From the NCBI GenBank assembly GCA_951406725.2, contig OX597834.1, positions 31,248,001-31,312,000 on the forward strand: a DNA stretch of 64,000 nt. Direction: 5' to 3'. This DNA comes from Octopus vulgaris. Lineage: Eukaryota. The notes beneath the pieces are model-generated. The model was not told the origin of the DNA, ran no database searches, and was given only the letters and a program-made list of their open reading frames with translations. Position numbers and translations under genes: made by a program. Shown here piece by piece: positions 46,801 to 64,000 of this stretch. The number at the start of each line of letters is the position of its first letter. Positions within the stretch are counted from its first letter, which is position 1.

Positions 46801-49800
46801 TATATTTCTTTACTATCCACAAGGGGCTAAACACAGAGGGGACAAACAAGGACAGACAAATGGATTAAGTCGATTATATCGACCCCAGTGCGTAACTGGT
46901 ACTTAATTTATCAATCCCGAAAGGATGAAAGGCAAAGTCAACCTCGGTGGAATTTGAACTCAGAACGTAACGACAGACGAAATACGGCTACGCATTTCGC
47001 CCGGCATGCTAACGTTTCTGCCAGCTCGCCACCTGATACAGCAGAAGTCCTACAATATAAACATCCTTGTTTGAAAATTTCATGTTATGTTCTAAACACT
47101 ATTTTAATAAAGTTATTTTACTAAATTCTTCATTATTATTTTCAAACCCAGTTGAAACTAAAACCGTTTGTTTCAACAGTTATATGGTAACAAAAGGGTT
47201 AAAGTGATCTAAATTAAAACCTGCAATCAAAAGTTTAACCCTTTTGTTACTGTATTTATTTTGAGATGCTCTGTGTTTCTTTCAATTACTTTAAATATAA
47301 CAAAGAATTTAGTAAGATATCTTTATTACCATTAAACTAGTGTTAGAAACATAAATTGTGACTAAGGTTTGGTGGAAGATTTTAATTCAAAACTTATGAA
47401 AACAAGACATTTGTACTCACAGCCAGAGCCAGTTTCAGCCGGGTTGGTAACGAAAGGGTTAATATTTGTTTGAAAGCTTAATAACGACAAAGTTATTTTA
47501 CTAAATTATTCTTTTCAACTGACATGGTAACAAAACAGTTGAGACCCAACCTTGTTATCCGTAATTGTCCGACCCTTGCACCAACTCAATTCCTTCAAAA
47601 GTTGGAACCAAGGAGATAATAAATATCGAGTTTACTTACGAGAGTTTCTTGAATTTCTTCACACAGTCCATCTCAGCAGATTCTTGGGTTTCCAAACTGT
47701 GGAGTTCACCAACAATTCTGAGCAGATCAAAGAAAGAATTAGAAAATTATTTAACAACAGACAATATGATCAAAAAAATTCCACCCATGCCCATCCAGTG
47801 TTGCATGTCCTTCCTTTTTATTTTTAAGACAGTAGGATGTAATCTAAAGAAAATCTAGCTGCTATTTCTAACAGGCAGGTCAAGTGACTATACAGGGCAG
47901 AGGTTCTCAATTGGGATCCATATGACTTTTAGGGTCCATATAAGGTTTTGTTAAAGTCCATGAGCAAAAACTCGGTTATACTTGTACAATACACAAAATA
48001 TTTTAACTTTTTTTTTATACAATTCCTAAAAATATAATAAGATTTTAACCAGTAACCCTGTAATTCATTCTATTCCTCATCCTCATTTAATGTTTGTTTT
48101 CCATGCTGGCATGGGTTGGGTGGTTTAACAGGATCTGATGGGGCTAAGGATCATGTGCTCCACTGTCTATTATAGGATCGTTTCTATGGCTGGGTGCCCT
48201 TCCTAGCATGTACAGGGTCCTTTTTACTGTGACCCTGGCACTAGTACGGGCACCATACAGTTTACAGGAGTATGAAACCCAATGAATGTTATGGGAGAAA
48301 CCTGAACACTCCCACGCGACTGAAGATGGACTAACCGATTACAATAAATAAGAACTGAGTGAACTGTCGGATTAGTTCGACTGTGTTGGTTTAACAGTGA
48401 ATACGGAGTATCGTACCTACGTTCAAGTTGTACGGAGTGCATTCTATGTTAACGTATTTCTACAAAAGGTTATTTTTAGATAACCACAACCAACTATTTG
48501 TCTAATATCATTTTACACCAGACGTGTCCACCCACATCGTAACAAAGGAGAGGGCTTTATGCTAGGGGATGAAGGTTAAGAAGGTATGTGAGAAGGCGGC
48601 GAGCTGGCAGAAACATTAGCATGCCGGGCGAAATACGTAGTTTTTCGTCTGCCCTTATATTCTGAGTTCAAATTCCGCCGAGGTTGACTTTGCCTTTCAT
48701 CCTTTCGGGGTCGATAAATTAAGTACCAGTTACGCACTGGGGTCGATATAATCGACTTAATCCGTTTGTTTGTCCCCTCTATATTTAGCCCCTTGTGGGT
48801 AGTAAAGAAATAGATATGTGAGAAGAGATGGTGGACCTGGTTCTTCATGGTTACAATTACTGTGAAATTAGGACAAAAATCAGGACAAATTAAAAATAAT
48901 AAAATGAAGAGGAGGCAAGAGATTTTTCTGCATCAGATTTCTTCTCACTTACTTGTCAAGGACATGGTAGGCTGTTATTTGGACAGCATAGAGTTTCGAT
49001 AAAAGCATCGGGCAGAACTGGTCTAGAATGGCTTCCAGCTTCTCGCTGGACGACAGACTGGTAGAGCTGGTTTCCTTCAGAGGTGTGTTCAATAGTCGGT
49101 CTTGTGGGCAGTGGGTTAGAACCTGTCCTAGCCAAGCAACGACAGGGTGTTGTTTGTCAGAGTCCTTCTCTGATGACAATACACTTTCTGGAGTGACAGA
49201 GAAATAATGATAATCTTAATGGCAAATAATAATGGCTTCTTTTATTGGCCACAAGGGCTAATATATGCAAACATAAAAGGACATACAATAACATTATACA
49301 ATGGGTTTTCACATTTGTGTAAAATCCCTTCAAATTCTTGGCACAAGGCCAACAATTTTAGAGGTTAAGTTGATTACATTGACCCCAGTACATTACTGGT
49401 ATTTTATTTTATTGACCATGAAAAGGATGAAATAACAAGGGAGGAAGAGATAATGAAAAATAGTTTGAAGAGAAGAATAGGAAAAGAAGAAAAGAAAGAA
49501 GGGACCCACCTGCTGATTGAATATAGAGTGGAATAACCAGAGCGTAAACGGTTTCACTGAAGAATTCATTCCATTCCGAGATGACATTGTCAGGGATGTT
49601 GGTCTGTGAGTCTTGCAGGCTGGCAGCCATCTCATAGAGCAGCTTACATATTCCTACCATAAATAGTTGCACCTGTACAGGTGAGCCACTCGGGCATTTC
49701 GTCTCACTGGCGCTCTGGGAACAATAAATAAATTAAGATAAGAAGGTACGGAGACAGGTATGTAATTAGGTAGATATTGGGTCCAGGGTCTTCTATAGCC

Positions 49801-51647: not shown

Positions 51648-54600
51648 CATCATCGTTTAGCGTCCACTTTCCATGCTAGCATGGGTTGGACAGTTCAACT
51701 GGGGTCTGGGAAGCCAGAAGGCTGCACCAGGCCCAGTCTGATCTGGCAATGTTTCTACGGCTGGATGCCCTTCCTAACGCCAACCACTCTGTGAGTGTAG
51801 TGGGTGCTTTTTACGTGCCACCGGCACGGAGGCCATGTGAGACTGGCAACGGCCACGATCGGATGGTGCTTTTTACGTGCCACCGGCACGGAGGCCATGT
51901 GAGACTGGCAACGGCCACGATCGGATGGTGCTTTTTACGTGCCACCAGCACGGAGGCCATGTGAGACTGGCAACGGCCACGATCGGATGGTGCTTTTTAT
52001 GTGCCACCAGCACGGAGGCCAGGCGAGACTGGCAAACGGCCACGATCGGATGGTGCTTTTTATGTGCCACCAGCACGGAGGCCATGTGAGACTGGCAACG
52101 TCCACGATCGGATGGTGCTTTTTATGTGCCACCAGCACGGAGGCCATGTGAGACTGGCAACGGCCACGATCGGATGGTGCTTTTTATGTGCCACCAGCAC
52201 GGAGGCCATGTGAGACTGGCAACGGCCACGATCGGATGGTGCTTTTTATGTGCCACCAGCACGGAGGCCAGGCGAGACTGGCAAACGGCCACGATCGGAT
52301 GGTGCTTTTTATGTGCCACCAGCACGGAGGCCATGTGAGACTGGCAACGGCCACGATCGGATGGTGCTTTTTATGTGCCACCAGCACGGAGGCCATGTGA
52401 GACTGGCAACGTCCACGATCGGATGGTGCTTTTTACGTGCCACATATATATAAACACACACACACATGCTGGTGTCATGTAAACAGCACTAATGTTAATG
52501 CCATGTAAAAAAAAAACAGTGTTAGTGCCATATCAAAAGTATCCAGTAGACTCTGTAAGGTGGTTGGCTTAGGAAGGGTACCCAGCTGTAGAGACCATGC
52601 CAGAACAGGCTATGAAATCATGTGCAGTCCCTGGCCTTGCCAGCTCCTGTGAAGCTGTCCAACCCATGCCAGCATGGAAAATGGATGTTACATGATGATA
52701 TATATATATATACACACATACATGTATCAGTGTGTCTGTATCATCATCATTTTAACATCCACCTTCCCAGGCTTGTATGGAGTCAGACAGAATTCATTCA
52801 TGTAGATTTCCTATGTCTGGTTGCCCTTCCTGTCACTAAAACCTCGCCTGTTTCTAAGCAAGATAATATTTGCCCTTGGTCAGACATCATCACCATTTAA
52901 TGTCTGTTGTTCCTGCTGGCATGGGTTGGACGGTTTGACCTGGGCTGACAAGCTGGAAGGCTGCACCAGACTAGTCTGATTTGGCATGGCTTCCATGGCT
53001 GAATGCCCTTCCTAATGCAACTGCTTATATGACTGGCCAAAACTATGAGACACAAGTGAGGGGCTATAGGAAACAAAATGCCCAAGGTGGCATGCAGTGG
53101 AACTGAACCTGAGACTATGTGGTCGAGAAGCAAAGTCTAAACCACACAGCCATGCTTGTCCACACGCGCGCGCGCGCAGACTAAATGTGAGCATAGTGGG
53201 TGAAGGGGATTTAGGGACTCAATGCATTTGTTTTGGGGAGGGGAAAAGGACATGGGTGTCTGGTGGACAGGTGTTAGCAGGTAGAGAAATGGAGGTGAGG
53301 TGGGTGAATTGATTGCAACAACATGCACACATCAAACAACAACTATTAGCACAGTAAACCTTAGAAATAAAAGGGAAAGTCGTCCACAGTGAGACAATAA
53401 CAACACAAATGAAACAGCCATAACATACATCATGTACTTACATGTGGAAAAGGAAATGGTCCCCAGAGTTACGCCATTCACTCAGAGTATTTAAGAGGTC
53501 GATGAAGATAGACTGCTTGTCAGGGTCTTCATGGAACTTCCATTTACCTGTTGCCATGGTGATAAGGGGCAGCAAACCTACAGCACCTTGAAGGTGAAAA
53601 AGGAGAGAGAGAGAGAACATTACAATTTATCTAAGACATATCTATGATGATGCTGATGATGACAGCAACAGTGATGATAAGAACAATGCAGCATCTCAGT
53701 ATCGTCACTGCTTGTATTGAAGGGAGGGGAGAGCTTCTACATGGTCATATGACTTGCTAGAAACAACAGTCAAACCTCTTAAATTACAACATGAATGCCT
53801 TAACCAAGGTAAGACACATTAGATGATGTAATCCTGTATGTATTGTGCTTAGGGAAAAGACGAGGTAGGCACGGGTGGATTACTTTTGATCACTGGTCTG
53901 ATTGATTTAAACTGGCCTGGGGTTAAATAACAACAAAAAACAAGCAACTGTGTAGCAAGCTGACAAGAGAGACAATGGGAAGTCATTGCCTGAAAATAAG
54001 ATGGGATGGTCATGGCTGGAACAGCTTTGATCATAACTGTACTCAGTAGTGGCTGCTGAGCTGGGGTTAAACAACTACAAATGTGTAACAAGCTGATGAG
54101 GTAGCCTCTATGAGAAGTCATTGCCTGAAAATGAGATGGGATGGCCATGGCTGGAACAGCTTTGATCATAACTGTACTCAGTAGTGGCTGCTGAGCTGGG
54201 GTTAAACAACTACAAATGTGTAACAAGCTGATGAGGTAGCCTCTATGAGAAGTCATTGCCTGAAAATGAGATGGGATGGCCATGGCTGGAACAGCTTTGA
54301 TCATAACTGTACTCAGTAGTGGCTGCTGAGCTGGGGTTAAACAACTACAAATGTGTAACAAGCTGATGAGGTAGCCTCTATGAGAAGTCATTGCTTGAAA
54401 ATGAGATGGGATGGTCATGGCTGGAATAGCTTTGATCACGAGTGTATTCTCAGTTCTGGGTTGACCTGGGGCTAACAGCTACAAAGAAAGCAAGAGAGGG
54501 TTTACTTACAACTGAGAGAGAAGAGGTTGTCACTGGGTAACGAGAGCAGCTTCGTTACAAGGACTTGTGTAATGTTCCAAGAAGCAGATGAGGTGCAATG

Positions 54601-55960
54601 TTGTATCAACATCCGTAACATTTGCAGGTGTTTCTCTGTGAATTCTTCTTCAAAATAGGAACCAATTCTTAGAAAGAAAAAAAAAAAATGGAAATAAATA
54701 AATATAATTGAACAGAAGAAATTAAATTAACCGTTTAGGATTCAGATTATTTTGTCAAATGCAATGGTTATTCCTTCCCGTTGTTTCAGAATTAGTCATA
54801 CATCATCTTGTTCTAAAAGCAGCGAAATTCTTAGCAGTATTTCGTCTGTTTTTATGTTCTGAGTTCAAATTCCGCTGAGGTCGACTTTGCCTTTCATCCT
54901 TTCGGTGGTCGAGAAATTAAGTACCAGTAATGTACTGGAGTCGATCTAATCGACTGACTCCCTCCCCAACAAAAAAACTTCCAGCCTTGAGCCTTGAGCA
55001 GAAAAAATTATCTTGTAGTTCCAACAAGATTCTGATAATATGATTGTTTATTTTCAGAATGACATTGTAGGGTAGGTATGAGAAACTGGATCTAGCTAGT
55101 ATGAACATAAAACAGGTATTTTAGCCAGATTAAATGCTAAAGGATTTACTGTTAGATATAATGCTCATTTAATAACATTGTTTTGAATTAATCCTGTATT
55201 AATCTCCATAACTGCAAGAGTTTGATGATGAAATTATTTTTAGAATGACATTGTAGGGTAGGTGTGAGAGGCTGGATCTGGCCAGTTTGAACATAAACAG
55301 GTAAAACATTGTGGCTAGATATACTTTACTTTTATTTGTTTCGGTCATTAGACACTGTGGCCATGCTGGGACACCACATTGAAGAATTTTTGAAGTTGAA
55401 TGAATCGACCCCAGGATTTAGTTTTAAGCCTGGCACTATTGATCCCTTTTAACCAAACTGCTAAGTTACAGGGACATAAACAAACCAACACCTGTTGTAA
55501 AGTGGTGAGGGAGAGACAAACAGACACAAAAGCATGCACACATAGATATATGTATATGGTGCGTACAAAGCACCATCCGTCCGTGGCCGTTTGTCAGCTC
55601 CGTCTGGCACCTGTGCGGGTGGCACGTAAAAAGCACCCACTACACTCACAGAGTGGTTGGCATTAGGAAGGGCATCCAGCCGTAGAAACACTGCCAGATC
55701 AGACTGGGCCTGATACAGCCTTCTGGCTTCCCAGACCCCAGTTGAACCGTCCAACCCATGCTAGCATGGAAAGCGGACGCTAAATGATGATGGGCTCCAT
55801 TCAATTTCCATCTACCAAATCAACCACTCACAAGGCTTTGGTCAGCCTGAGATTATGACAAGATCCTTGCCCAAGGTGTCATGCAGTGGGACTGAACCCA
55901 GAACCATGTGGTTGGGAAGCAAGCTTCTAACCACACTGCTACACCTACTAAATTCTGTGA

Positions 55961-55992
<32 letters not shown>

Positions 55993-58900
55993 TTGTTGTT
56001 GTATCTGATCTTTGTTCTGTTCTTTTTTGCAGGATTGTTCACTAAGCAATTCTGCCGAAGATTTAATCCTCATTTTGTACAAATTTGTTCTGGAAACTGA
56101 TTTGACTTACCACATAGCCTCACCTGTGCCTGTGATATGAAAATTTTTCTATAAAGAAACTAACGACCCGAATGGAGACAGTTATATTTTTTTATGTTTT
56201 TGTAAATAATAAAAAATAGATTTAAAAGAAAACAGAATTTCTTATGGTTTGTATCTTTGATGTTTTTTTAAAGATTGATTTGTATTTACCTGTTTTCTGA
56301 GAGTTTTTCATGGAATTTTTGTTCCAACAGAAACTGCAAGCCCATAGCTTGCCAATGTCCATCTGATAAGACACTGTGAAAGAGGAAAAAAGAAAACATC
56401 AAAATTCAGATTTGTGTGTGTGTATATAAATACATATTTGGTATTAATTATTAGTGCAAACAAAAGTGCAACTCTGTTGCACTTTCCATGTATGTATAAT
56501 TGCTTCTACACATAAACCAGTGTTTGGCAGTGGGGGGTGGAAATGGGTGCATAATTATATAAATATCTCTTAAAAATATAATGTCGATATATTTTATTAT
56601 TTCTAACATAGTGTTCAAAATCCCTGAAAAAGAAAAAAAAAGCACTCAGCATGCTATGTAAAGTGGTTGGTGCTAGGAAGGGCATCTTGCTGTAGAAACC
56701 TTACAAAGGCAGAACTGGAGCACAATGCAGTCCTTGGAACACTCAGAGAACAAGATGACACAGATGCATCAAGTCGCTGTCCTTTTAGGTGCAGGTGTCA
56801 CTTAAAAAGCACCCATGTCAGTGCTGCGTTATTGCACCTGTACTAGTGCTACATAAACACACCTGTACTGGAGGCACATGAAAAGCACCCAGCACACTCT
56901 GTAAAGTGGTTGGCATTAAGAAGGGCATCAAGCCATAGAAACCATGCCTCAACAGATAGTTGGAGTCTAGACAGCTCCTACTGACCAGCATCATGTCAAA
57001 CTGTTCAACCCATGCCAGCAGGAAAAGAGGACATTAAAATGATGTAGTATATATATACATATACATATATGCACCAGACTCCAATTGTCTGGTTTGGCAT
57101 GGTTTCTACAGCTGGATGCCTTTCCTAATGCCAACCAATTTACAGAGTGTACTGGGTGCTTTGTATGTGGCACTAGCACAGGGGCTTATCATGCTTGCAT
57201 GATTAGATGGAATTTTTTGAGGCAGATTTTCCTACAGCCAGATGCCCTTCCTGTCACCAAACCTCACCTGTATTCCAAGCAAGGTAACATTTCCCATGGC
57301 CAAACGAGTTTTTCTTGAAACCTTAAAACAAACATCACTTGTATGATGGCAATGTGCATTTTACAACCACCAGGTGATGTCAAGAAAGGGTACACACACT
57401 TTATATTGTTTCTGCCAACTAAATCTACTCACAAGGTTTTGATTGGCCTGGGGTTGTAGAAGAAGACACTTGCCCAGGGTGTCATGTAGTGGGACTGAAC
57501 CCAAGACCACATGGTTGGCAAGGAAGCTTCTTAACCACACAGCCATGCCTGCACCTTTAGCTCATTCAAAGTCAGCAGTAATTGTTTAGTGTTACATCAG
57601 GCAATCTGTAGTGAAAGGCATTCCAGTCATGACCATCCTATAAACATAGGCCACTTCTTTTGAAGAGGAGAGAGTGGAATGGGAAGGAAATTTGGTTGCA
57701 GTTTCTAATGAGTCAAGCAACAATGGAGAAGCTGTAATGAAGTGGTGGTTATAGTAGTAGTAGTAGCAATAGTAAGTAGTAGTAGTAAAAAGATGTGAGA
57801 TAGCAAGCAGCCACTGACCGTTGCGTGAAAAGGTCCAGTAATGTATCAGTCTGCTTATCGTCCAGGTTATCAAGATGTTTGGTCACCTGCTTGTGTAATG
57901 TCATCACAGATTTCTTCAGTTCACTATTCTGCAAAAAAAACAAAACACAACAACAATAATAATAAGGGTTTCAAATTTTGGCACAAGGCCAGCAACTTCG
58001 GGAGAAGGGGTAAGTAGACTATATTGACCTCAGTGCTCAGCTGGTACTTATTTTATCGACCCCAAAAGGATGAAAGGCAAAATCGACTTCAGCAGAATTT
58101 GAACTCAGAATGTGCAGACAGATGAAATGCTACTAAGCAATTTTTGCGACGTGCTAACAATTCTGCCAGCACACTGCCTTAATAATAATAATGATAATTT
58201 CAAATTTTTGCCACAAGGGCAGCTTGGGGGAGGTGGGGATGAGTCGATTACATCAACCCCAGTGTTCAACTGGTAATCTCTTTATCAACCCTGAAAGGCA
58301 AAGTCAACCTTGGTGGAATCTGAACTCAGAACATAGTGACGAGTGAAATACTGCTCAGCATTTCGTCCAGCATGCTAACGATTCCGCCAGATCACTGTCA
58401 TAATAATAATCCTTTCTACTAAAAGGCACAAGGTCTGAAAATTTGGGGGAGAGGGTTAGTTGATTACATTGATCCTAATGTGTCACTGGTACTTAATTTT
58501 ATCAACCCCAAAAGGATGAAAGACAAAGTCAGCCTTGGTGGAATTTGAACTCAGAATGTAAAGGCTGACAAAATGCTGCAAAACATTTTGCTCGGTGTGC
58601 TAATGATTCTGCCAGCTCAATGCCTTAATAATAATAATGATAAAAGTAAAAATGGATGCAAGACGATAGGTCTTTATTATCAGGAATAATAATAATGGTT
58701 TCAAATTTTTGCACAAGGCCGGTAATTTTAGGGGTGGAGGTTACTCAGTACTTGACTTATACTTCATTGATCTTGAAAGGATGAGAAGCCAAGCTGGCCT
58801 CAGAAGGAATTGAGCACAGAACATTAAGGGCTGGAAAGACTGCAGCAAAAGCATAATTTCCAAGACTCTAAAGATTCTACCAGCTACGTGCATTTGTGAA

Positions 58901-61900
58901 ATATCATTAGATGAAAGAAGGCATTGAACTACAAATGGTCGAGAATTACTGGTCTAACCCAAGCCAGGATGGAAAAATAGACATAAAAAATATAAATAAG
59001 GAGACAGTTTTTACCGTGTTGTAGTTATCGACCCAACATTCGGAAACAGCGACTGAACAGAGCAAGTTGTAAAGGACATCAAGAAGTTGGGGTGGATTAA
59101 GTAAGCTGGTCAAGGGGTCACTAGAATCCTCTGATAGATCATCTTGCAGGAAATCTAATAGAGATGTATGGAAGAGGCTAGTGAAGACTGTGGAAGTAGG
59201 GAAGTCTCCAGGTGGAACCTCGGGGTTTAGTTTATTGTGTCTTTGACAATCCCAGTAAGTGGCGCTTAGCTGTCCGGTTATCATGAGATATTCTTCAAAC
59301 TGAAAGACAAAAACAAAAATTTTTTTTAATTAAAATAAAATCGAAATCGATCAACATCAATGGAAATTGCAGCTGTGATACCATTGCCGGTGGTACGTAA
59401 GAGAACCATCCAAACGTGGCCGTAGCCAGCGCCGCCCCGACTGGCCTCGTGCCGGTGGCACGTAAAAAGCACCATCTGATCGTGGCTATTGCCAGCTTCG
59501 TCTGGCACCTGTGCCAGTGGCACGTAAAAAGCACCCACTACACTCAAGGAGTGGTTGGCGGTAGGAAGGGCATCCAGCCGTAGAAACATTGCCAGATCAA
59601 AATGGGCCTGATGCAGCCTTCTGGCTTCCCAGACCCCAGTTGAACTGTCCAACCCATGCTAGCATGGAAAGTGGACGCTAAACGATGATGATGATGAAAA
59701 TAAAATAAAAGTAAAATAAAAAGTAAAATAGTTTCATATTTCAGCACAAGGCCAGCAATTTTAGGGGGAAAGAGAAAGTCTATTACATAAACCCCAATAG
59801 TTGACTGGTACTTTATTTTATCAACCTAGAAAGGATGAAAGGCAAAGCCGACAATAACAGAATTTGAAACTTGAACATGAACAGCTGGATTAAATGCACC
59901 AGACATTTTGTCTGATGCTCTACCAGTTTTGTTAGTTTGCAATCCTAATTGTTTCTCATTTGGGAAACACCTTAGCAGAAATGGAGATCCTTACCTGTTT
60001 AGGTGGCAACACGTGTTCTGTCACACTGAACAGGTGACTGAAGTGCTCAACCAAAAATGGACTGGTTAAACCGTTGTCTACTTCTGCAAACACTGTATGT
60101 AACAGAGTCTTTACTTCTCCAAAGACAGTTTGTAATCTGCAAAGAATGAGAAAAAATAAAAAATGGGGGAGGGTCAATGTCACGAGAAGAGGAGAGAGAG
60201 AGAGGAAAGAGTTGAGGAAAGAGTTGAGAAAAAGCAGATATCATCATTTTAATGTCCACTTTGCACTGTTCTCAGGATTCACATGCAATTTGTTAGGGCA
60301 TAGATCCTGCAGCTGGATGCCCTTCCTGTTGCTTACCCTCATCTGTTTCCAAGTAAGATAATTTCCTCAAGATTAGATATGTCTTGGAGGAAATGAAGGA
60401 CATTACTTGCACGATGGCAACATCTGTTTACAACTATTGATGATGCTATTTGTTGAGGCATAGATCCTGATGATGATGATGGAATGGCAAGTTGACAGCA
60501 ATGCATACACACACACACACACACACACGATGGGCTTCTTTTAGTCTCCATCAACCAAATCTACTCACAAGGATTCAGTCACCCCAGCTATAGTAAAAAC
60601 ACTTGTCCAAGGTGCCAAGCAGCGGGACAGAACCCAGAATAATGTGGTTGAGGAAGCAAACTTCTTACCATAAATAAATATATTAATTATCATCCAATTT
60701 CTTTATTAGCCACAAGGGCCCAAAAATAGAGGGGGACAATACAGCCTGATTGGGGTCAGACACACAATGATTATATGACTTCTTAAATTTTACAAAATAT
60801 AATGAAATCGAATGAGATACAAGGACGTAATACAAACATGAGATGAAGCAGAGAGATGGCTTACGCTCCGACCCCCATTCTCCTCTCCTCATTGCCATTA
60901 TCACCATAATTGTCATCATCATCACCACAATCACCAAAATCATTATCATCATCACCATCAACATCATTGTTGTCACTACCACCACCACCATCATTATCAT
61001 CATACCTCATTTTTATGTGGTCCAATTACAAAGAGGAAGCCACAAAATTAGAAAGTTAACGAATTTACTGCCAGACACTAAACGAGGTACTCACTGTTCC
61101 GTTGTGGCCACTTTGTACATTACAGTATCTCGAACTGCCTGGAAAACGTTGAGGAAGAACCTACTGGTGCCCTTCGATGTTGCAGGCTGGCGACGGTAGA
61201 GAGTCTGCATTCCATTGATACAAACTTGACGAACTTCCTTTCGAGTGTGTTCTGTGGGATGAAGACAAATTATAACAAACATCAGCTAATGAGAGAAACG
61301 TTCAAAGCTAACAGAATTCTAATTGGTACAAGAAACTTTACATATATACATATATACACATAACAGGGATGGCTGTGTGGTTAAGACACTAAAATGATGA
61401 TTATGATGGTGTTACATATGACAAAATTAAAGGAATCAAGTCGAAACAAAGTTATAGAAATAAGTATATAGGCGCAGGAGTGGCTGTGTGGTAAGTAGCT
61501 TGCTAACCAACCACATGGTTCCGGGTTCAATCCCACTGCGTGGCATTTGGGCAAGTGTCTTCTGCTATAGCGCCGGGCCGACCAATGCGTTGTGAGTGGA
61601 TTTGGTAGACAGAAACTGAAAGAAGCCTGTCGTATATATATGTATATGTATGTGTGTGTGTGTGTTTGTCCCCCCTAGCATTGCTTGACAACCGATGCTG
61701 GTGTGTTTACGTCCCCGTCACTTAGCGGTTCGGCAAAAGAGACCGATAGAATAAGTACTGGGCTTACAAAGAATAAGTCCTGGGGTCGATTTGCTCGACT
61801 AAAGGCGGTGCTGCAGCATGGCCGCAGTCAAATGACTGAAACAAGTAAAAGAGAGTAAGAGTATAAAATTATGTAAAGATTTAACTGAAAAGCTGGAGAA

Positions 61901-62128
61901 CCTAACTCAACAGAGACATTACTTATAGCCAACTCTTTATTTGCACCAATTCCATATTCCACACACACAAGAAAAAAACATTATAGTTTAAGAATCTGAA
62001 GGAATTTACCTGAAACAGTCAAATCAGTTTCCAGAACAAATTTGTACAAAATGAGGATTAAATCTTCGGCAGAGTTGCTTAGTGAACAATCCTGCAAAAA
62101 AGAACAGAACAAAGATCAGATACAACAA

Positions 62129-62160
<32 letters not shown>

Positions 62161-63294
62161 TCACAGAATGTAGTAGGTGTGGCTGTGTGGTTAGAAGCTT
62201 GCTTCCCAACAACGTGGTTCTGGGTTCAGTCCCATTGCGTGACACCTTAGGCAAAATGTCTTCTGCTACAACCTTGGGCTGATGAAAGCCTTCTCAGTAG
62301 ATTTGATAGATGGAAACTGAAAGAAGCCCATCGTGTGTGGGTGTGTGTCATTGTGTACATATTTGTCCCCCACTACCACTTGACACCAGTGTTGGTTTGT
62401 ATATGTCCCCATAACTTAGCAGTCCAGCAAAAGAGATGGACCGAAGAAGCACTAGGCGTAAAAAAAAAGTCTCAATTTTTTTTATAGCTAGATGCCCTTA
62501 TCATCACCAATATCCTTAAGGCTAAATCTTTTGGCATTCAGATTACTCTCAAATGTAATGCTTATTTTATCAGCATTGCTTTGAATTAATCACGCATCAT
62601 CCCATAGCTTCAAGATTTCAATGATGCTATTGTTTATTTTTAGAATGACATTGTAGGGCAAGTGTGAGGGGCTGGATCTGGCCAGTTTGAACATAGAACA
62701 GGTAGAAAATTTGGGCCTGATACGGTTGGTAAAGTCTCACCTCTAATCCCTGGAAGAAACTAGCCAACACTTTGGCAACAAACTGCATCGAGAGGTCAGT
62801 CTTATGGTTGTCCTTACTCAGTTTTAACTTCTTCAATGTTGAGTGAATGACAAAAAATATCTTTTCAATATATTTCATCTGAAGAAGTGGTTCTGAAACA
62901 AAGGGAAAAAATATTTAAAAAATTTTTTGCATCACCTCATATTTTATAACAAAATTTAATTTTTTTTTTCATAAAACTTAAAACAGGAAGCTTGCATCAT
63001 AGAACCAGGCTGGGTGGTCGTGAGTGGGTTGGTGTCAAAAGGGTTCAACATACCTGATTGAGAATTTGATGACAAAGCCACAGTGAGGACAGACCAGTTG
63101 TCCTCGACAACTGAAAGTTCAACTCCAGCAGTTGGTGGGACAAGAGCCTGGGCACACACGTCTTCAGTGATGGACACAAGCAGCTCACCAAGGGTAGACG
63201 TTTCCAGCCACTTGGATATGGCCGTGACCTTCCAACGCGACGACAGCAGCTCCAGCAAGAACACTTTCAGCAAATGTCTGTCACCATCGAGATT
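38566..63294 (-). CDS. LTN1: E3 ubiquitin-protein ligase listerin (LTN1/RNF160), 5'-partial, 22 coding exons, 3336 nt in window
   Basis: Phase-consistent exon chain. C-terminus [60 protein letters not shown]...CPLCR is the listerin RING. It is preceded by RWD ([10 protein letters not shown]) and the conserved LGYLLTWKL and SEWNEFFSE motifs. Confidence 0.96.
38866..39260 (+). mobile_element. SINE family A copy (last LTN1 intron)
   Basis: Full-length ggcgcaggagtgg...gactgaaacaagtaaaag. Confidence 0.9.
39451..39618 (-). CDS. LTN1: LTN1 exon (RING)
   Basis: tgacag|[56 protein letters not shown]|gtgagt. Confidence 0.95.
41362..41556 (-). CDS. LTN1: LTN1 exon (RWD domain)
   Basis: ttttag|[34 protein letters not shown]...[12 protein letters not shown]|gtgagt. 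Confidence 0.95.
42414..42501 (-). CDS. LTN1: LTN1 exon
   Basis: ttccag|[29 protein letters not shown]|gtgagg, phase 2-0. Confidence 0.9.
42723..43100 (+). mobile_element. SINE family A copy
   Basis: Matches family A, slightly 5'-truncated. Confidence 0.88.
43253..43382 (-). CDS. LTN1: LTN1 exon
   Basis: ttgtag|[42 protein letters not shown]|gtaagt, phase 1-2. Confidence 0.92.
43491..43781 (-). mobile_element. tRNA-derived SINE family D; decayed relatives near 41880-42135, 46500-46640, 63580-63840
   Basis: Head gtggaggcacaattgcccagtggttagggcagcgaactcgcagtcgtaggatcgcggttttgattccc with A/B-box-like motifs; inserted in (TA)n. Confidence 0.75.
43873..44041 (-). CDS. LTN1: LTN1 exon with GC donor
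   Basis: tcccag|[28 protein letters not shown]...DLLCTS; donor CAG|gcaagt; phase 0-1. Confidence 0.85.
44716..44908 (-). CDS. LTN1: LTN1 exon
   Basis: atgcag|[14 protein letters not shown]...[23 protein letters not shown]|gtaagc. Confidence 0.92.
46102..46203 (-). CDS. LTN1: LTN1 exon (symmetric, phase 2-2)
   Basis: tttcag|[33 protein letters not shown]|gtaagt. Confidence 0.8.
46803..47030 (-). mobile_element. SINE family B copy
   Basis: Reverse complement of 48592-48812 and 9955-10176. Confidence 0.88.
47239..47458. mobile_element. 220-bp piggyBac-type MITE
   Basis: TTAA|cccttttgttac ... gtaacgaaaggg|TTAA. Confidence 0.8.
47640..47717 (-). CDS. LTN1: LTN1 exon (symmetric, phase 2-2)
   Basis: gctcag|[25 protein letters not shown]|gtaagt; continues VLDK into IVGEL. 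Confidence 0.78.
48592..48812 (+). mobile_element. SINE family B copy
   Basis: aaggcggcgagctggcagaaac...gtagtaaagaaatag. Confidence 0.88.
48953..49187 (-). CDS. LTN1: LTN1 exon
   Basis: ctccag|[20 protein letters not shown]...[21 protein letters not shown]|gtaagt. Confidence 0.9.
49510..49714 (-). CDS. LTN1: LTN1 exon
   Basis: tcccag|SASETKCP...[26 protein letters not shown]|gtgggt. Confidence 0.9.
51283..51424 (-). CDS. LTN1: LTN1 exon
   Basis: ttacag|[47 protein letters not shown]|gtaaga. Confidence 0.9.
51646..52442 (-). mobile_element. SINE-like family C copy carrying a ~10x 62-bp tandem array (51804-52442)
   Basis: Unit gtgctttttaygtgccaccrgcacggaggccatgtgagactggcaacggccacgatcggatg; ORF starts offset by 62 nt. 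Confidence 0.9.
53442..53586 (-). CDS. LTN1: LTN1 exon
   Basis: ttcaag|[16 protein letters not shown]...[18 protein letters not shown]|gtaagt, phase 1-2. Confidence 0.85.
53915..54480. repeat. 135-bp tandem repeat, ~3.5-4 copies
   Basis: gaagtcattgc at 53979, 54114, 54249, 54384. Confidence 0.92.
54510..54667 (-). CDS. LTN1: LTN1 exon
   Basis: tctaag|[24 protein letters not shown]...[13 protein letters not shown]|gtaagt, phase 2-1. Confidence 0.83.
55922..56107 (+). repeat. Inverted duplicate of LTN1 62017-~62200 (intron end, acceptor and 75 of 82 nt of the exon)
   Basis: 56033-56107 equals the exon sense sequence with one C>T change; upstream (TAC)n and polypyrimidine tract are also copied. 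Confidence 0.95.
56290..56373 (-). CDS. LTN1: LTN1 exon
   Basis: tcacag|[27 protein letters not shown]|gtaaat, phase 2-2. Confidence 0.8.
57819..57928 (-). CDS. LTN1: LTN1 exon
   Basis: ttgcag|[36 protein letters not shown]|gtcagt, phase 0-2. Confidence 0.85.
57955..58900 (-). mobile_element. Chain of SINE family B copies separated by (AAT)n
   Basis: Four reverse-oriented copies starting near 57965, 58195, 58410 and 58695. Confidence 0.8.
59015..59299 (-). CDS. LTN1: LTN1 exon
   Basis: tttcag|[16 protein letters not shown]...[24 protein letters not shown]|gtaaaa, phase 0-0. Confidence 0.85.
59380..59696 (+). mobile_element. SINE-like family C copy
   Basis: Family C core and (GAT)n tail. 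Confidence 0.85.
59995..60136 (-). CDS. LTN1: LTN1 exon
   Basis: ttgcag|[20 protein letters not shown]...TEHVLPPKQ|gtaagg, phase 2-0. Confidence 0.85.
61095..61251 (-). CDS. LTN1: LTN1 exon
   Basis: ccacag|[18 protein letters not shown]...VMYKVATTE|gtgagt, phase 1-2. Confidence 0.85.
61471..61860 (+). mobile_element. Full-length SINE family A (tRNA-derived head)
   Basis: A-box-like tggctgtgtgg, B-box-like ggttcaatccc, internal (TA/TG)n, tail ggcggtgctgcagcatggccgcagtcaaatgactgaaacaagtaaaagag. Confidence 0.92.
62010..62091 (-). CDS. LTN1: LTN1 exon (82 nt; source of the inverted copy at 56033-56107)
   Basis: ttgcag|[28 protein letters not shown]|gtaaat; phase 0-1, required to join the flanking exons in frame. 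Confidence 0.87.
62176..62460 (+). mobile_element. Older SINE family A copy adjacent to the duplicated exon
   Basis: Diverged family A head and body. Confidence 0.8.
62741..62892 (-). CDS. LTN1: LTN1 exon
   Basis: tttcag|[19 protein letters not shown]...[10 protein letters not shown]|gtgaga, phase 1-0. Confidence 0.85.
63054..63294 (-). CDS. LTN1: LTN1 exon (most 5' exon found in window)
   Basis: caacag|[22 protein letters not shown]...[16 protein letters not shown]|gtatgt. Confidence 0.85.
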
Positions 63295-64000
63295 CTGTTG
63301 AAGGAAATGATAAAATGTCAGACTCAACACCAAAATAGTTTTGAGGGTACATACCCCAGATTATTCTTGAGGACTCAAAAATGTCTCATGGCTTGAGCAC
63401 AAGACCAATAGGGAGATTTATACCCTTATTCCACCAATTTCTAATGTTGACAGGCTTTGCTAGTCACTGCCATTGTGCTGGATGTTATATTTTGGAGACT
63501 CAGCATCGAAATAGTGGACAAAGACAATTCAATTATATTGCGGGTATAACTAGCACCCCATTGGTTATGATGATGAGGGTTCCAGTTGGTCCGATCAATG
63601 AAACAACCTGCTAGTGAAATTAACATACAAGTGGCTGAGCACTCCACAGACACATGAACCCTTAACATGGTTCTCAGATAAATTCAGCTGTGATACAGAA
63701 GGTGACAAGGCTGGCCCCTGGTGAATTACAGGTACAACTCGTTTTTTGTCAAATGAGGACAAGATGTGCCTTTGGCAATCAAATTCCTGACCTTACAATT
63801 GTCAGCCAAATATCCCGAACCATTAGGCCATGCACCTTCACACATTAAGGTTACACAGAGATACAGACACACACACACACGCAATAAGAAATTGGGGACT
63901 GACTTAAAACTAATGCAGAATTGGGACCCCTGGTAGTGTGAGGACACACTACTTGACTGCAAAAGCTTGAAGAAGCAGCTTACATCATTAGAATAATTTA

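Follow-up and report, generated by a model that had tools for sequence, protein, structure and literature searches.

The stretch of Octopus vulgaris DNA considered here (hereafter the window: 64,000 nucleotides (nt), positions 31,248,001 to 31,312,000 of contig OX597834.1 in assembly GCA_951406725.2) carries the octopus gene LTN1, encoding listerin, and within one LTN1 intron it carries an inverted copy of one of the gene's own coding exons. LTN1 occupies the minus strand between about 78.5 kb, a point outside the window, and 38.6 kb. When ten of its exons are delimited by AG/GT boundaries, their translation reproduces the protein CAI9738461.1 without a difference, and a homologue search with one LTN1 exon returned a single cluster of three Octopus listerin proteins and no transcript variants. 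The copied exon is 82 nt long (62010..62091, minus strand), encodes about residues 834-860, and follows an intron of 649 nt (62092-62740). Five more minus-strand exons separate it from the copy: 61095..61251 (157 nt), 59995..60136 (142 nt), 59015..59299 (285 nt) and 57819..57928 (110 nt), and 56290..56373 (84 nt), whose donor stands 182 nt before the copy. Their sum, 778 nt, agrees with the original prediction, made from the sequence, that pairing between exon and copy would loop out five exons of that total length. The intron hosting the copy, delimited by its exon boundaries, spans 54668..56289 on the same strand (1622 nt).

The insert proper occupies 179 nt of the plus strand (55929..56107) and is an inverted copy, 97% identical, of the 176 nt at 62017..62192 on the minus strand. 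It comprises the inverted head of a short interspersed nuclear element (SINE) that neighbors the source exon, a (TAC)n tract, a polypyrimidine tract, the acceptor AG, and 75 nt of exon, and it is antisense in the LTN1 pre-mRNA. The alignment from 55911 onward (197 columns) shows 5 substitutions between insert and source, together with a single 3-nt indel in the (TAC)n/TTG microsatellite. The exon-derived portion, 56033..56107 (plus strand), reproduces 75 of the 82 exon nt with a single C>T change at 56050 and is accompanied by the acceptor, just as had been predicted. The copied upstream intron is also there, though it measures 104 nt, or 122 nt when the shared SINE homology is included, rather than the predicted ~110 nt. 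A wider alignment, of 55789-56107 (plus) with 62332-62017 (minus), is identical at 284 of 322 columns. The predicted extension of the duplex into the flanking SINEs holds in that these are homologous, but that homology belongs to an older, separate SINE copy, with 56-86% identity per 30 nt over its first 90 nt. A whole-genome search with exon plus acceptor, in which simple repeats were skipped, returned two places only, the source and the copy; among 31 LTN1 coding segments searched by tblastn, the source exon alone has a second match within the 1.06 Mb searched. An Rfam search over 54000-64000 gave no matches.

The history of the insert can be read from the repeat that it interrupts, which we take to be a tRNA-type SINE on the strength of its box A/B-like head. 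The body of this recipient SINE lies at 55789..55928 and its severed head at 56108..56135, both on the minus strand; the source SINE has the opposite orientation (62170..62332, plus strand) and sits in the 649-nt intron that precedes the exon. When the recipient was compared with the source SINE and with ten other SINE copies in the window, its body proved to lack the source's private variants, having the consensus letter at all 13 such sites between 55815 and 55910. Some source letters do occur in the recipient up to 55910, but they are ones that other window copies carry as well. An 18-nt tract of perfect identity between recipient and source SINE follows (55911..55928, plus strand), forming the left, homologous junction, and at 55929 stands the first source variant that is absent from all ten other copies. 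The right junction carries a 2-nt CT microhomology at 56106-56107. Deleting the 179 nt restores an unbroken old element that reads straight through the family consensus: of 98 family alignments that span the joint made by connecting 55928 to 56108, 89 lack any gap within 3 nt of it. Target DNA was neither lost nor duplicated by the insertion, and the donor exon, which still reproduces the protein, was left intact.

Because one homologous junction, one 2-nt microhomology junction, and a restored SINE are found together, we interpret the insert as a product of one-sided, repeat-primed break repair. A break or stalled fork would have arisen near the head of the intronic SINE, and one broken end would then have annealed to the SINE of opposite orientation that lies 6.1 kb away. 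Synthesis from that end may have copied 176 nt, running through the source SINE head into unique intron and exon, after which the copying end would have been released and end-joined to the other broken end. This is the course of events known as one-sided invasion, or synthesis-dependent strand annealing (SDSA), finished by end joining. A template switch at a replication fork would leave an identical trace and is indistinguishable from break repair here. The junction anatomy accounts for the copy without selection. We consider it likely that repeat-primed repair of a DNA break placed this inverted copy of LTN1 exon and acceptor sequence within an old intronic SINE, and that the insert is neutral.

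The copy can be followed in part into other samples. Four of 24 listed sequencing runs were compared as contigs over 55300-56500 (X2, X4, X7, and X8), and the resulting tables of contig differences and joints are dominated by SINE contigs. None of the 24 is recorded as an RNA run, although 12 may be RNA, and this has no bearing on expression. Runs X7 and X8 have almost no cover over 55997-56078 and are uninformative. In run X2 (organism A, from a separate study), a 416-nt contig starts at 56078 with 30 letters of the exon copy and continues through the intron, where 3 letters differ and 8 positions are gapped, and the end of a second contig falls precisely on 56107. These contigs fit the same junction and suggest that the copy is present in this second sample. 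The short side of the junction contig is one letter below a 31-letter bridging rule, which may be due to a branch in a 31-letter assembly graph. In run X4 (organism B, a second species label), a 115-nt contig has its first letter at 56107; taken in its native orientation, this contig end suggests that the copy is probably present under this label too. Contig depths (28.9 for the shared and 8.07 for the junction contig in X2, 75.9 in X4) are compatible with heterozygous and homozygous states alike. Both the X2 and X4 contigs have C at 56050, which may be the source allele retained after bubble removal. No empty-site joint occurs among the 15 joints listed from these contigs, with 678 further joints beyond them and no cover in X7 and X8.

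The same contigs also record variation. Over 56078-56407, about 330 nt, the X2 contig haplotype has 3 substitutions and 2 deletions relative to the window, and one of these changes, at 56328, is synonymous. Variation within this label is thus about 1%, not far below the 2.8% divergence of copy from source. The X4 contig has a C>A change at 56047 that, read in the frame of the exon, would replace Ser with Arg; Ser is present here in each of the three Octopus proteins, and the change possibly lies in the non-coding copy of organism B.

To place the LTN1 copy in a genomic context, we sampled 1.064 Mb, consisting of 464 kb around the window and three hand-chosen 200-kb regions, with tandem repeats masked, and counted sequence pairs no more than 50 kb apart, requiring a shared tract of 60 nt or longer that is otherwise single-copy and has an identity of at least 85%. 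The sample holds 25 such local two-copy pairs, 11 of them inverted (the LTN1 pair included), compared with 1.3 local pairs expected from the 14 distant ones. Inverted pairs at least 1 kb apart number four, again counting LTN1. One of these other inverted pairs (L054:252-432 and L054:1518-1698; 181 nt, 96% identity, 1.1 kb apart) consists of about 90 nt of SINE and about 90 nt of unique flank, the same layout as in LTN1. Similar local inverted copies thus recur in the sampled genomic DNA. Given the approximately 200,000 exons of the octopus (PMC10700109), a rate of 3 per Mb and an assumed mean exon length of 170 nt, a hand estimate puts the genome-wide number of copies that capture an exon on the order of a hundred, uncertain by a factor of several.

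The insert itself has the features of a sequence that drifts. Two of its changes depart from the SINE consensus, and its differences from the source fall on the exon part (1/75) and the intron part (4/101) at rates that a test of little power does not separate (Fisher p=0.40). This low-powered measure gives no indication of constraint on the copy, which is probably neutral. The 27-residue exon peptide is invariant in three Octopus species, which is expected at 96% overall identity and is not counted here as evidence.

Several points nonetheless weigh against the favored explanation. The contig ends that suggest its presence under a second species label would allow for long persistence. The frequency of local copies comes from four hand-picked regions, one of them centered on the window, and inverted pairs with a short spacer could represent the ends of transposons. 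The LTN1 pair has the highest score of the 94 inverted alignments found between 38.5 and 64 kb. The 75-bp duplex of exon alone is predicted at -123 kcal/mol at 37 C. Were the five intervening introns spliced first, the loop would shrink to 967 nt, for which a formula derived from human Alu elements gives an editing signal of 0.87% (PMC4066801). Finally, this Alu curve averages over human repeats that are less identical, and it may not hold for the adenosine deaminases acting on RNA (ADARs) of the octopus.

A rival possibility is that the copy, however it originated, now acts as a new editing-complementary sequence, so that ADAR edits the exon substantially, mainly in neurons, across a loop of about 1 kb. 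We regard this as unlikely. The pairing geometry of the original interpretation is correct: the arms lie 5910 nt (~5.9 kb) apart in one LTN1 pre-mRNA, antisense to each other, with a predicted stability of -289 kcal/mol at 37 C for the complete duplex. Under co-transcriptional splicing, the 75-bp exon stem could hold together a loop of about 1 kb for as long as the host intron persists, and since splicing of the intervening introns brings the arms this close, low-level editing of the exon could still occur. If edited, 15 of the 21 paired exon adenosines would recode. The LTN1 pair is also the only one to touch an exon among the 45 of the 94 inverted alignments that were listed. On the other side, ADARs prefer an A opposite a C. 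The sole mismatch in the exon duplex sets a C of the exon against an A of the intron, contrary to what site-selective recoding would call for, and so would favor editing of the intron A; none of the five substitutions is compensatory; and the pairing partner persists for no longer than the 1.6-kb intron that contains it. Near-perfect duplexes, moreover, are edited promiscuously rather than site-selectively (PMC9989829), and in humans Alu editing declines exponentially as the distance grows, with a length scale of about 800 bp, and it is also lower across gene segments (PMC4066801). At the full 5.9 kb the same formula yields a signal of 0.002%.

A search by name for LTN1 or listerin gave no match in the supplements of PMC9699675 (two of three files), PMC8382921, and PMC9989829, whose tables may use identifiers, cover other species, or be incomplete, so that this is no evidence either way. 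Two purely intronic inverted SINE pairs, 51646-51950/59385-59692 (88%) and 51648-51877/55562-55792 (90%), have predicted duplexes similar to or stronger than that of the insert and could compete in folding.

More improbable still is that the full 179-bp duplex hides the acceptor and thereby tunes LTN1 output, the exon being skipped, with a frameshift and decay, or the five looped exons being back-spliced into a 778-nt circle. The original prediction had rightly noted that skipping this 82-nt exon shifts the frame; a stop then follows after 43 codons. The duplex does cover the pyrimidine tract, AG, and exon, and the arms bracket the candidate circle, lying 766 nt before the acceptor at 61251 and 182 nt after the donor at 56290; inverted Alu pairs are also known to promote loop-out skipping in humans (PMC13019027). 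If splicing were slow, the whole stem could form across the 5910 nt and hide the acceptor. It would require, however, that the 649-nt intron stay unspliced during the transcription of 5984 more nt. Co-transcriptional splicing would use the acceptor that far ahead of the copy's appearance, leaving no room for a skipping switch, and distance and splicing order thus make this part of the original interpretation unlikely. A rough tally does not mark the acceptor, which ends in CAG, as weak (17 of 20 pyrimidines, where ten acceptors range from 14 to 19), and loop-out skipping favors weak acceptors (PMC13019027). Nearer inverted SINEs, with a 1.5-kb loop, can compete for the source SINE. Circular RNAs (circRNAs) are scarce in O. 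vulgaris according to the supplement of PMC9699675, and the annotated LTN1 protein contains the exon. On balance, splicing probably uses the acceptor before transcription reaches the copy, and the effect on the RNA would be either none or a low level of by-product adenosine-to-inosine editing of a short-lived duplex. Editing, as judged from the modeled loops, appears more plausible than skipping or back-splicing.

Elsewhere in the gene, the inverted SINE pair 46798-47034/48594-48817 (88% over 237 nt, with a 1560-nt loop) flanks a single short LTN1 exon near 47639-47719. It has the classic loop-out geometry and is more closely spaced than the exon-copy pair.

An origin through RNA, in which SINE or LINE (long interspersed nuclear element) machinery copied the LTN1 pre-mRNA instead of a DNA template being switched, would suit the location of the insert in a SINE and the fact that it copies transcribed sequence. 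We find it very unlikely, as neither a poly(A) nor a target-site duplication is visible at the insert, the recipient SINE was neither duplicated nor deleted, one junction coincides with an 18-nt match to the SINE of the donor itself, and the copied stretch, which is unspliced, lies upstream (5') of the SINE head. Least credible of all is an assembly artefact, for which one could cite the 30-letter short side of the X2 junction contig, failing the 31-letter rule, and the lack of useful cover in X7 and X8, but against which stand the five differences and indel that separate copy from source, the clean splitting of a SINE, and the contig ends in X2 and X4.

Three tandem arrays also lie in the window. 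A degenerate C/A-rich array of about 9 kb (29310-38328), with a GC skew near -0.7, ends just past the last LTN1 coding exon. A second array, at 51803-52443, has a period of about 62 nt, is built from an internal SINE segment, and shows 97% identity between offsets. The third, a 135-nt repeat in an LTN1 intron (54000-54438), has at least 3.3 copies at 98% identity and may extend to the left of 54000.

Our analysis touches on a wider discussion of how new editing substrates originate in coleoids, and of whether most recoding is a by-product, both of which are still argued (PMC9699675, PMC9989829). As a repair scar, the LTN1 copy is ordinary but unusually legible, both junctions and the empty site being readable from sequence. 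It is conceivable, if doubtful, that SINE-primed break repair provides octopus genes with ready-made editing-complementary sequences in one step, and that the LTN1 copy is a newborn example which, once the intervening introns are spliced, drives clustered recoding across about 1 kb in carrier lineages only. If such one-step gains are real, the comparable exon copies, perhaps on the order of a hundred, would constitute a natural experiment on the origin of coleoid recoding sites. If the LTN1 exon is edited by this route, edits should be confined to the 75 paired bases, sparing the last 7, and should not occur in species that lack the copy; if it is not, the absence would bound the reach of an exon-intron duplex in an animal with very active ADARs. 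A literature search, mostly outside subscription papers, turned up no account of the LTN1 locus, and none of an inverted exon copy that serves as a new partner for editing.

The neutral repair scar that we favor can be set beside several known systems. Well-established editing-complementary sequences are conserved, imperfect, and site-selective, and they usually lie in the adjoining intron. Like those serving the GRIA2 Q/R and R/G sites (PMC1920255), the LTN1 copy is intronic, complementary to an exon of the same pre-mRNA, and downstream of it. Unlike known editing-complementary sequences, it is young, near-perfect, and five exons away, and it is a candidate element. As with the inverted Alu pairs that underlie loop-out skipping in TBXT (PMC13019027) or circRNA formation (PMC4201285), an inverted pair encloses exons within one pre-mRNA; in TBXT-type loop-out, however, the affected exon lies between two arms that are both intronic, whereas in LTN1 one arm includes the exon and its acceptor.

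On the side of DNA repair, templated insertions of the microhomology-mediated break-induced replication type (MMB-TI) are short inverted copies of a local template with microhomology at the junctions, occur as germline variants, and draw on a template within 100 bp (PMC8421209). The LTN1 insert is likewise an inverted copy of its template with junction microhomology, but its template is 5910 nt away and one of its junctions uses repeat homology (compare PMC8421209); because it departs from the 100-bp rule, it resembles this class without being assigned to it. Closer is the pattern of one-sided invasion or SDSA completed by end joining (PMC4888836), which shares with LTN1 one homologous junction, limited copying of donor flank, a non-homologous second junction, and an unchanged donor. 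What distinguishes the octopus case is that the homology lies between two diverged SINEs of one gene and that the captured flank is an antisense coding exon. The LTN1 insert is most likely a young repair scar and a member of an already known kind of event.

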